A DNA stretch of 14,640 nt from a virus (IMGVR_UViG_2630968342_000015); one strand, 5' to 3'. Counted from the stretch's first letter, positions 6,862 through 14,457 are shown. The notes: generated by a model not told the origin, from the letters alone. Program-made: numbers and translations.

Positions 6862-6909
6862 TTGTTCGTGGTTGTTCCACGTTGTTCACTGACAGGATCG
6901 GCATATTTT
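6862..6909 (+). promoter_or_regulatory. Phased TTGTTC repeats (6862, 6872, 6882) with candidate -10 TATTTT (6904-6909); putative activator-dependent head-operon promoter
   Basis: TTTGTTCGTGG TTGTTCCACG TTGTTCACTG at exact 10-bp spacing. Third unit sits 16 bp upstream of TATTTT. 15-mer TTGTTCCACGTTGTT recurs exactly at 14375-14389. Confidence 0.4.
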
Positions 6910-7062
6910 ACCCGAACTGAATCATGAGTATTCTCGCCCGTGGTGCCAGGACGCTGGGGCCACTTTCCCGCCTGTTAATGTGCTCGCCAATATTCATTAC
7001 CAGGCGGGAAAACGATCGGTGCGATTGCTGATTTCCTTATGAAAAACGGTTGAGTTTTTGCC

Positions 7063-7102
7063 GCGTCCTGGAGTTCCTTACTTAACCCCAGGACTTTTTT
7101 TT
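7063..7102 (+). terminator. Terminator/attenuator hairpin abutting the capsid start codon, with the SD inside its 3' arm
   Basis: GTCCTGG (7065-7071) pairs with CCAGGAC (7088-7094) across a 16-nt loop, followed by eight T (7095-7102), then ATG at 7103. AGGA (7090-7093) is the only SD-like sequence. Confidence 0.4.
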
Positions 7103-13738: not shown

Positions 13739-14030
13739 CTGGTTGATATTCCCGACGGACCAAAAATGGGTGGCTACATCCCTCGCTTCTGAGGACTGTT
13801 AACAAGCTGCCTGAAAGACAGTCACAAACTACGAAATTTTCGCAGTTTAATTAATGATCAGCTTAATCGCTAACCCGCTGATATTTTCGGAAACCTCAAT
13901 TTGAGGAAGTCGGCGCGGTAACTCGCTGAACTTTAAGCAAAGTGCAAAATTGCGCTTGCTGAATAATCATTATGATTACGCAGATGATTAAGGAATGACC
14001 GAAGGCGGAAATTCGCCTGTGGTTAATGGG

Positions 14031-14144
14031 GGAGTTGCAGATCTGCAACTCGACCATGAAACTACGGAAACTACCCGTAGTTTGGGTAGTAAGAGTAACA
14101 CCCAGATTTTGGGTCTTACTCGTGATACCCAAATTTGGGGTATC
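14031..14144. promoter_or_regulatory. Cluster of palindromes in the right noncoding arm
   Basis: Perfect 20-bp palindrome GAGTTGCAGATCTGCAACTC (14031-14050). 9-bp inverted repeat AAACTACGG / CCGTAGTTT (14059-14083). Two related palindromes ACCCAGATTTTGGGT (14100-14114) and GATACCCAAATTTGGGGTATC (14124-14144). Confidence 0.45.
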
Positions 14145-14361
14145 AGTGGCAACCATAACGACTTTCGTTACGGTTGATGCTTTTACCCCATTGGGGGAAA
14201 GGTATTACGATAATCATAACACCTACCGAACAGGTAAAGCCCACCAGCCTGATTAACGTTTAACCGGAAAAAAATTCCGGTAGGTGGGGATCCCCATATC
14301 GACATTAACGCCCCTCATGAATTGGTGCGCTTCCCCCTGGAAAGATGATCCGCCTGTATAT

Positions 14362-14457
14362 TTCTTGTGTCTATTTGTTCCACGTTGTTTCATACAGTGC
14401 ACCGAACGGTGTAGTCACTGGTGTAGTCATTTTGCGATTTTTGGCACTTTTTGCGGT
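14362..14457. repeat. Right-arm repeats near the junction: TTGTTCCACG TTGTTTCATA (14375-14394), tandem GGTGTAGTCA(C/T) (14408-14418, 14420-14430), TTTTGCG repeats
   Basis: Read directly. The 15-mer at 14375-14389 is identical to 6872-6886. Candidate integrase/excisionase arm-type sites. Confidence 0.4.

Follow-up and report, generated by a model that had tools for sequence, protein, structure and literature searches.

Phased TTGTTC arrays at the attachment arms and predicted promoters of an Escherichia coli satellite island as candidate AlpA operators

Introduction

The role of AlpA, first described in the element CP4-57, as master activator of Gram-negative PICIs has been recognised since 2018. 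Among the better characterised proteins with which it may be compared, P2 Cox activates the PLL promoter of the satellite P4 from three 10-bp repeats just upstream of that promoter, and P4 Vis acts at attP and at late promoters. We take the three 10-bp TTAAAG repeats that stand upstream of vis in the P4 record to be the Cox boxes. The same record annotates Vis (ORF88) as an excisionase and transcriptional regulator, and labels as "attP arm sequence repeats" the 12-bp tandem pairs that flank the core, the P' pair lying just upstream of int.

Proteins with a recombination directionality function (RDFs) bind head to tail on tandem repeats one helical turn apart (PMC7498355). For 186 Apl there are five sites at att and seven at pR-pL, bound cooperatively, with bending of the DNA and with low specificity per site (PMC7498355). 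TorI is the mapped RDF of KplE1 (CPS-53); its 8-bp sites, with 2 nt between them and a GTTCG core, lie in attL next to intS (PMC2951348). The reported cores are GTTCG, GATCG and GTCCG, and the sites occupy the P' arm between the core and int, where they overlap the int promoter (PMC2951348). As we read them in K-12, these sites are CAGTTCGTCA, TGGTTCGCTT and CAGATCGTTG.

In the PICI EcCICFT073, AlpA supplied in trans activates a PalpA-lacZ fusion, and AlpA over-expression leads to int-dependent excision (PMC6092414). The transcription of PICI alpA is itself switched on by a helper-phage factor (PMC6092414). Studies of EcCICFT073 and EcCIEDL933 describe AlpA autoactivation and the loss of induction in alpA mutants, and the AlpA of PICMI, which resembles TorI, is sufficient for excision (PMC10803314). 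Our literature search found no paper defining an AlpA site or array binding in PICIs. Pseudomonas AlpA-type antitermination was considered as a model and rejected; that protein, of a different family and much larger (eight helices, with DNA-contact residues at numbers as high as 142), is similar to the Q antiterminators and recognises one GGGACG element.

Results

The island and its insertion site

The window, by which we mean the whole stretch of 14,640 nucleotides that was analysed, is identical to positions 2491600-2506239 of E. coli G1/2 (NZ_CP060083.1), and the flanks outside it were read in that genome (coordinates prefixed L001). Comparison with the uninterrupted tqsA of K-12 shows that the E. 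coli gene is interrupted by a 14.7-kb island with a 9-bp att core, ATAACAGCA, which is found at the attR junction in tqsA (14504-14512, plus strand) and again, as the attL copy, at L001 2805-2813, that is, 187-195 bp upstream of window position 1. Pfam matches and RefSeq annotation identify int, alpA, an icd-like gene, DUF4222, a D5/P4-type primase, SSB, PerC and a 74-aa gene, together with HK97-type capsid, protease, portal, head closure, connector, HNH, TerS and TerL genes. The island thus has int, alpA and primase along with its own head genes, has no tail or lysis genes and measures about 15 kb; judged by its Pfam matches, its RefSeq annotation and the gene set described for EcCIEDL933, the window is a capsid-forming PICI (cf-PICI) in E. 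coli tqsA. Rfam and tRNA scans gave no matches.

By Pfam and RefSeq annotation, int (1-1218, plus strand, with an annotated start 11 nt upstream of the window) encodes a P4-family tyrosine integrase with an N-terminal arm-DNA-binding domain (Arm-DNA-bind_3, 1.4e-18; Phage_integrase, 2.9e-16). The alpA gene (1593-1781, plus strand) encodes a 62-aa winged-helix protein of the AlpA/Vis family, which is our proposed array binder. It matches Pfam Phage_AlpA (PF05930; 1.9e-17), PHROG 2790, "excisionase and transcriptional regulator" (2e-17), P4 Vis (45% identity, E 4e-16) and the AlpA-family protein of PDB entry 8c3t (1e-6), an entry for which our literature search found no paper, and it is 94% identical to the AlpA of EcCICFT073.

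TTGTTC arrays

Three units, TTGTTCGTGG TTGTTCCACG TTGTTCACTG, lie upstream of the head operon at 6862-6891 (plus strand); five TTGTTC-type units at an exact 10-bp period occupy 1261-1310 (minus strand), between the int stop codon and alpA; and three units, TTGTGTCTAT TTGTTCCACG TTGTTTCATA, which are identical in six related islands (L003 and L015-L019), stand in the attR (P) arm at 14365-14394 (plus strand). The initial annotation had quoted arrays at 6862-6891, 1261-1310 and 14375-14394, and direct reading bore out both their sequences and their coordinates, as it did the exact 15-mer common to 6872-6886 and the attR arm (TTGTTCCACGTTGTT, at 6872 and 14375, with no other copy in the island). 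Its count of three loci proved too low. There are at least six once attL is included, where four units, TTGTTCCAGC TTGTTTCACG TTGTAGCCCT TTGTGCAACG, occupy L001 2899-2938 (62-101 bp upstream of window position 1) and more phased TGTTT units lie closer to the core. To these are added a two-unit pair at 1521-1540 (minus strand; ATGTGTCTGA TTGTGTCAGG), which overlaps the predicted alpA -10 element and is matched by TTGTGTCGGA TTGTGTCAGG in L016, L017 and L018, and another at 6552-6571 (minus strand; TTGTGTCTGT TTGTTTCAGA), which lies 15 bp upstream of the small, conserved 74-aa gene (6586-6810) and is kept in L003, L015 and L017.

The phasing that had been described as exactly 10 bp is real. Against 1000 dinucleotide-preserving shuffles, three runs of at least three TTGT at exact 10-bp spacing were observed where a mean of 0.006 is expected, and the longest run was of five units as against a shuffled maximum of three. 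All units within one locus point one way, and the unit consensus across the arrays is TTGTTyCAyG.

These features are those expected of an RDF operator array of the Xis/Cox/Apl/TorI type: at least three head-to-tail direct repeats one turn apart (here in runs of 3, 4 and 5, with 6 in relatives), placed in the att arms at 3-13 bp from the GGTGTAGTCAC pairs described below and within about 150 bp of the core, in an element that encodes a small winged-helix protein of an RDF family, namely AlpA. As with a dual-function RDF-regulator of the Cox/Apl/Vis/RdfS kind, one repeat type is found at att and at predicted promoters, the loci away from att being the int-alpA spacer, the predicted PalpA itself, the region upstream of the 74-aa gene and the region upstream of the head promoter.

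Candidate integrase arm sites

A different repeat, of motif GGTGTAGTCAC(T), is arranged in tandem at a 12-bp period as GGTGTAGTCACT GGTGTAGTCA or as two copies of GGTGTAGTCA. Its attR copy is the pair GGTGTAGTCACT GGTGTAGTCAT at 14408-14430 (plus strand), and its twin in attL lies at L001 2942-2964, 24 bp before the int start. The pair directly follows the array on its 3' side in both attL and attR, and no copies occur elsewhere. The layout is that of the annotated P4 attP arm repeats, and both arms of CP4-57 likewise carry 12-bp pairs, TAGGCCCA and TAGGACCA. Compared with P4-family arm sites, which the GGTGTAGTCACT pairs resemble, the TTGTTC arrays have the wrong period (10 bp), occur in runs of 3-6 and are present at internal loci. 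The 12-bp pair, rather than the TTGTTC array, is on this comparative reading likely to be the integrase arm site, and the match of the pairs to the P4 and CP4-57 arms leaves the TTGTTC arrays for a second protein.

Integrases of 76-92% identity that share this arm module are inserted at tqsA, in the roxA-phoQ spacer, in yifB and near cspD (the window and L015-L019). Since the arm module is constant across the four chromosomal sites, core specificity has shifted while the arms remained unchanged.

The head-operon and alpA promoter regions

A terminator scan places an intrinsic terminator at 6821-6846 (plus strand); it closes the upstream transcription unit, so that the head operon needs a promoter of its own. 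Directly 5' of the head array stands TTTTGTAAATTAT (6849-6861, plus strand), invariant in every cf-PICI lineage examined at 2.0 bits per column, and conservation across lineages points to a predicted head-operon promoter at 6907-6934 (plus strand), with a -35 element TTTACC (6907-6912), a 16-nt spacer and a -10 element TATTCT (6929-6934). Fifteen variants share one layout, in which TTTGTAAATTA is followed by 1 nt, three 10-bp units, 13 or 15 nt, TTTACw, 16 nt, TATyyT and a leader hairpin; two of the variants depart from TATyyT, with TACCTT and TAAATT. The head array thus spans about -80 to -50 relative to the predicted transcription start, the position of an upstream activator. A generic promoter scan found no promoter at the head operon, because its thresholds were stricter.

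Two side observations concern this region. The near-identical intrinsic terminators AGCCGGAGAAATCCGGCT (6467-6484) and AGCCGGAGCAATCCGGCT (6821-6838) flank the 74-aa gene and so set it apart, between perC and the head operon, as a small separate transcription unit. The capsid leader of about 160 nt (6940-7100) contains elements conserved across distant cf-PICIs, namely a hairpin, GTGGCAC...GCCGCCAC (GTGGTGCC...GGCCAC in the window), directly after the predicted start and a box resembling GGTTTCACGTC near the start codon; it may be a regulatory RNA structure, for which Rfam gave no match.

For alpA, a consensus scan predicts a promoter at 1503-1531 (plus strand; TTGCCA, 17 nt, CACAAT, with TG), and TTTGCCA is invariant in the alignment of int-alpA spacers (A2). 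The int-alpA array lies about 280 bp upstream of alpA in the opposite orientation. The position of the 1521-1540 pair on the predicted -10 element would suggest repression, as against the activation that has been reported. Elsewhere in the spacer, the block TACTGnTTTTTTnTACAnTnGCGAATCAnTCTT at 1364-1400 is almost invariant across diverged int-alpA spacers and is followed at 1405-1433 by a hairpin that resembles a strong minus-strand terminator; this block may represent a promoter or encode a small RNA.

Conservation across related islands

A capsid-protein search of genome contigs gave five useful relatives. The initial annotation had proposed that a motif search be made in related islands, and arrays are indeed present at equivalent positions in L003 and L015-L018, and in L019 at the att arms only. 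Same-position arrays occur in a Shigella island, in EcCICFT073 (L016), in a classical PICI of O157 and in cf-PICIs at roxA-phoQ and in yifB, and a PICI at cspD has arrays at att only, so that they are kept in islands at four insertion sites (tqsA, roxA-phoQ, yifB and cspD). Almost every one of 68 IMG/VR loci with an AlpA of at least 87% identity has them too.

In related islands the int-alpA array has 3-6 units, and in alignment A2 its (G)AACAA cores are invariant every 10 bp while the spacers vary. The head array exists as 15 distinct 30-mer variants across lineages, in which unit positions 2-6 (TGTTC) hold 1.4-1.85 bits and positions 7-10 hold 0.15-0.6 bits. In L018 the head-array block is invariant, as against flanks that have diverged by about 50%. 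Periodic conservation of this kind is the signature of a protein reading one helix face once per turn.

In the L091 lineage the att and head units have a common relaxed flavour (GTTCG/GTTTA/GTTCA/ATTCA). In vB_KppS-Ant (Int 50%, AlpA 47%) both repeat types are altered together, the pairs being TGTATAAACA, with a five-unit GTTCATC array upstream of alpA and four TTCATG units inside attP. The pair motif thus differs in distant islands (TGTATAAACA in Ant, GGTATCCTAT in a Citrobacter island), yet the module of array followed by pair is retained at both ends.

The three-unit array at the head promoter is absent from vB_KppS-Ant and from the Erwinia island L006, though both carry the conserved TTTTGTAAATTAT, and no head-operon array is present in the classical PICIs L015 and L016, whose packaging module differs; the head array is therefore a feature of one cf-PICI head-module lineage. 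TACCC (three copies) and TTCAT units at the Ant and L006 head promoter were considered as lineage-specific arrays and rejected, the 15-variant alignment showing both islands to be without the 30-bp array; the GTTCACC clusters near this promoter in Ant and L006 are ori iterons.

Other phased arrays were seen in these islands. One, of four or five GTGACnnnnn units, also at 10 bp, lies near the right end of L003 (16789-16828), L017 (29520-29559) and L018 (28745-28794); the corresponding part of the window (13739-14360) is occupied by other accessory DNA and lacks it. Three 10-bp arrays fall within 200 bp upstream of the alpA-like gene of vB_KppS-Ant (L021, 7130-7328), four units of CATTCAACAG abutting three of GACACGTAAC, with five GTTCATC units about 80 bp further on.

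Replication iterons

The ori iterons TGTTCACC, present in both orientations at 5253-5480 downstream of the primase gene, are distinct from the arrays; the 8-mer is the annotated "ori type 1 repeat" of P4. It is hardly credible that the TTGTTC arrays are themselves iterons of the island replication initiator, forming a second, crr-like cis site as in P4, although TGTTC is common to the array units and to TGTTCACC, the third head unit TTGTTCACTG matches the iteron at 7/8 bases, and in P4 the TGTTCACC iterons occur at ori and crr, two distant loci of which one adjoins attP. Relatives with other replicases (other primase alleles, a RepA-type helicase, a DUF927 protein) have the iterons CTGTCTACC, AAGTGGGGAG, TAACCCGCA and CCTCTACC, with the same TTGTTC arrays in the same places. 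The arrays stay the same whichever of four replicase types is present, and we rejected the iteron reading since only the iterons follow the replicase in their variation.

Proteins linked to the arrays

In all five islands that carry both-arm and int-alpA arrays (L003, L015-L018), the only conserved proteins are Int (88-92%), AlpA (90-98%) and a 93-aa protein (hyp93). The last is 84-91% conserved in islands with internal arrays and is missing from L019, which keeps its att arrays. Some of the five lack PerC, the 74-aa protein or DUF4222, or carry highly divergent versions of them; PerC is missing in L018 and the 74-aa protein in L016, and arrays are present in both. The int-alpA region has matches in 887 of 5426 complete E. 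coli genomes and the attR arm in 883 genomes; Int and AlpA are almost never separated, so comparative data cannot cleanly tell them apart. L019, in which AlpA is 60% and Int 76% identical, has lost the int-alpA array and retains those at att, a pattern that is ambiguous and fits Int as the binder as well as it fits AlpA.

Mapping of the published primers identifies the PalpA reporter fragment of EcCICFT073 as L016 15941-16396, which contains the six-unit homologue of the 1261-1310 array and a two-unit pair, eight units in all, and no GGTGTAGT pair. The published Pint fusion, whose expression AlpA left unchanged in EcCICFT073 (PMC6092414), maps to about L016 14436-15282 and includes the attL array.

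Discussion

AlpA as the probable binder, and its rivals

We take the TTGTTC arrays to be a strongly conserved and functional set of protein-binding sites, and consider it probable that they serve AlpA as operators, bound cooperatively in the manner of the Cox/Apl/Vis/TorI systems. With Int provided with a better candidate site in the 12-bp pairs, AlpA remains among the conserved proteins. The initial annotation had proposed that one island protein, either an AlpA-like regulator or the arm-binding domain of the integrase, acts near int/alpA, at the head operon and at an att arm. Its core idea of cooperative binding to phased sites by one island-linked protein is supported by the conservation of the arrays, by their periodic footprint and by their linkage to the int-alpA module. 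The ranking of the candidates and the number of loci have to be revised, as does the role assigned to the att arms, since the arrays there most likely serve excision, a recombination directionality function, rather than expression. From this material we infer physical binding of the units by AlpA, where the promoters lie and in which direction each is regulated.

The integrase domain now appears the less likely of those two candidates, with the separate 12-bp pairs a better fit to Int. Were the arrays nonetheless arm-type sites for the N-terminal domain of Int, the internal loci would titrate Int or regulate genes. Int does carry an Arm-DNA-bind_3 domain, the arrays stand in both arms within about 140 bp of the core, Int and arrays are always co-inherited, and in L019 the att arrays persist with an Int of 76% identity despite an AlpA of only 60% and the loss of the int-alpA array. 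Both arms nevertheless contain the 12-bp pair as well, its P' copy standing some 24 bp ahead of the int start in the manner of P4 and CP4-57, and two unrelated motifs for one arm-binding domain are unlikely. An RDF-regulator would suit better than Int the runs of 3-6 units with their exact 10-bp period and the sites that lie at two or three promoters remote from att, and the PalpA fragment that responds to AlpA contains arrays and lacks the GGTGTAGT pair; this reading is accordingly quite doubtful. A slightly less doubtful suggestion, though still an unlikely one, is that the binder is some other sequence-specific protein, either from the helper phage, as P2 Cox is for P4, or from the island itself (hyp93, PerC or the 74-aa protein). 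A helper-phage factor does switch on PICI alpA transcription (PMC6092414), the TTAAAG repeats upstream of vis offer a Cox-box precedent, and hyp93 is well conserved where internal arrays occur. Against this, AlpA alone suffices to activate PalpA in a non-lysogenic host (PMC6092414), arrays are present in L018 without PerC and in L016 without the 74-aa protein, the att arrays of L019 occur without hyp93, sites for a helper factor beside Int arm sites on both arms are not expected, and the flavour of the units differs between island lineages.

Were the binder a host winged-helix response regulator of the OmpR/PhoB class, the island would be linked to a host signal. Such regulators use direct repeats 10-11 bp apart, and the attL units near the core, CTGTTTCATA ATGTTTCAGG, loosely resemble PhoP-type TGTTTA half-sites. 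An exact 10-bp period with runs of up to six units is atypical of that class, however; the arrays adjoin Int arm sites on both arms, their unit sequence varies between island lineages within one host species, and we know of no host box that matches TTGTTCC, all of which makes this origin very improbable. The AlpA reading has its own difficulties. The Pint fusion with the attL array is unresponsive to AlpA, the int-alpA array is directed away from alpA, the 1521-1540 pair overlies the predicted -10 element, the head-promoter array is missing from Ant, L006, L015 and L016, and RDF sites on both att arms are unusual.

A proposed mechanism and its implications

If AlpA is indeed the binder, its monomers would assemble head to tail, one per 10-bp unit, each reading the TGTTC core, and on an array they would form a short, cooperative filament that bends the DNA. 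The filaments at attL and attR, beside the Int arm pairs GGTGTAGTCAC, would then help Int to assemble the excisive complex, while sites in the int-alpA spacer and at the predicted alpA promoter would provide for AlpA autoregulation. At the head operon, where the array stands upstream of a weak, conserved promoter of sigma-70-like sequence, AlpA might serve as an upstream activator, as P2 Cox does at P4 PLL. In this scheme AlpA induced by a helper would bring about excision, its own amplification and capsid-gene expression through one recognition code.

More tentatively, we speculate that AlpA is the sole switch encoded by the island, that the modules of array and Int pair on both arms together form the excisive complex, and that the same filament directly activates the capsid operon, a fuller proposition that we would put forward as possible and no higher. 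To our knowledge RDF filaments on both arms are an architecture that has not been described for lambda, P2, 186 or KplE1. If this were true, helper sensing, excision and capsid production would be hard-wired together, which would explain the timing of head production in capsid-forming satellites.

The papers on AlpA of EcCICFT073 and EcCIEDL933 define no binding site, and the arrays described here would be the missing operator. They give a concrete candidate, built on a TGTTC core in a 10-bp register and present at six loci, along with a predicted AlpA-dependent capsid promoter for cf-PICIs and a separate candidate site for the integrase arm domain. The AlpA switch of Gram-negative PICIs is thereby made directly testable, and the annotation of att sites and regulatory regions could be improved in the hundreds of E. 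coli genomes that harbour these islands.

Comparison with known systems

Among known repeat families, the P4 alpha type I iterons resemble the arrays in being short TGTTC-containing repeats, partly at about 10-bp spacing and clustered at separate loci; iterons of the P4 type differ in that they occur in both orientations beside the replicase gene and change with the replicase, whereas the arrays are unidirectional and independent of it.

TorI shares with the present case its 10-bp period, and the GTTC of its core corresponds to the most conserved array positions here. It is, however, a weak relative of the island AlpA, with 26% identity and a sub-threshold match to Pfam AlpA (E 0.12). The sites reported for TorI are confined to attL, and TorI is a repressor of int, unlike AlpA of EcCICFT073, which left Pint unaffected. 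We know of no role for TorI at structural-gene promoters.

P4 Vis (ORF88) is the closest characterised homologue of the island AlpA, and the satellite to which it belongs likewise encodes a P4-family integrase and has tandem 12-bp arm repeats flanking its core. P4 differs in that its genome is without TTGTTC arrays and in that it redirects capsid size and has no capsid genes of its own.

In 186 Apl and P2 Cox, dual-function RDFs of P2-like phages, the likeness is that of a small protein bound head to tail on direct repeats phased at 10-11 bp, both at att and at promoters, and the geometry that we propose for the head array is that of the Cox boxes at P4 PLL. Apl and Cox lie outside the Pfam AlpA family, mainly repress switch promoters and have their sites in one att arm. 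The island differs from both in pairing an array with candidate Int arm sites in each arm, and in the internal role proposed for its arrays, the activation of a capsid operon.
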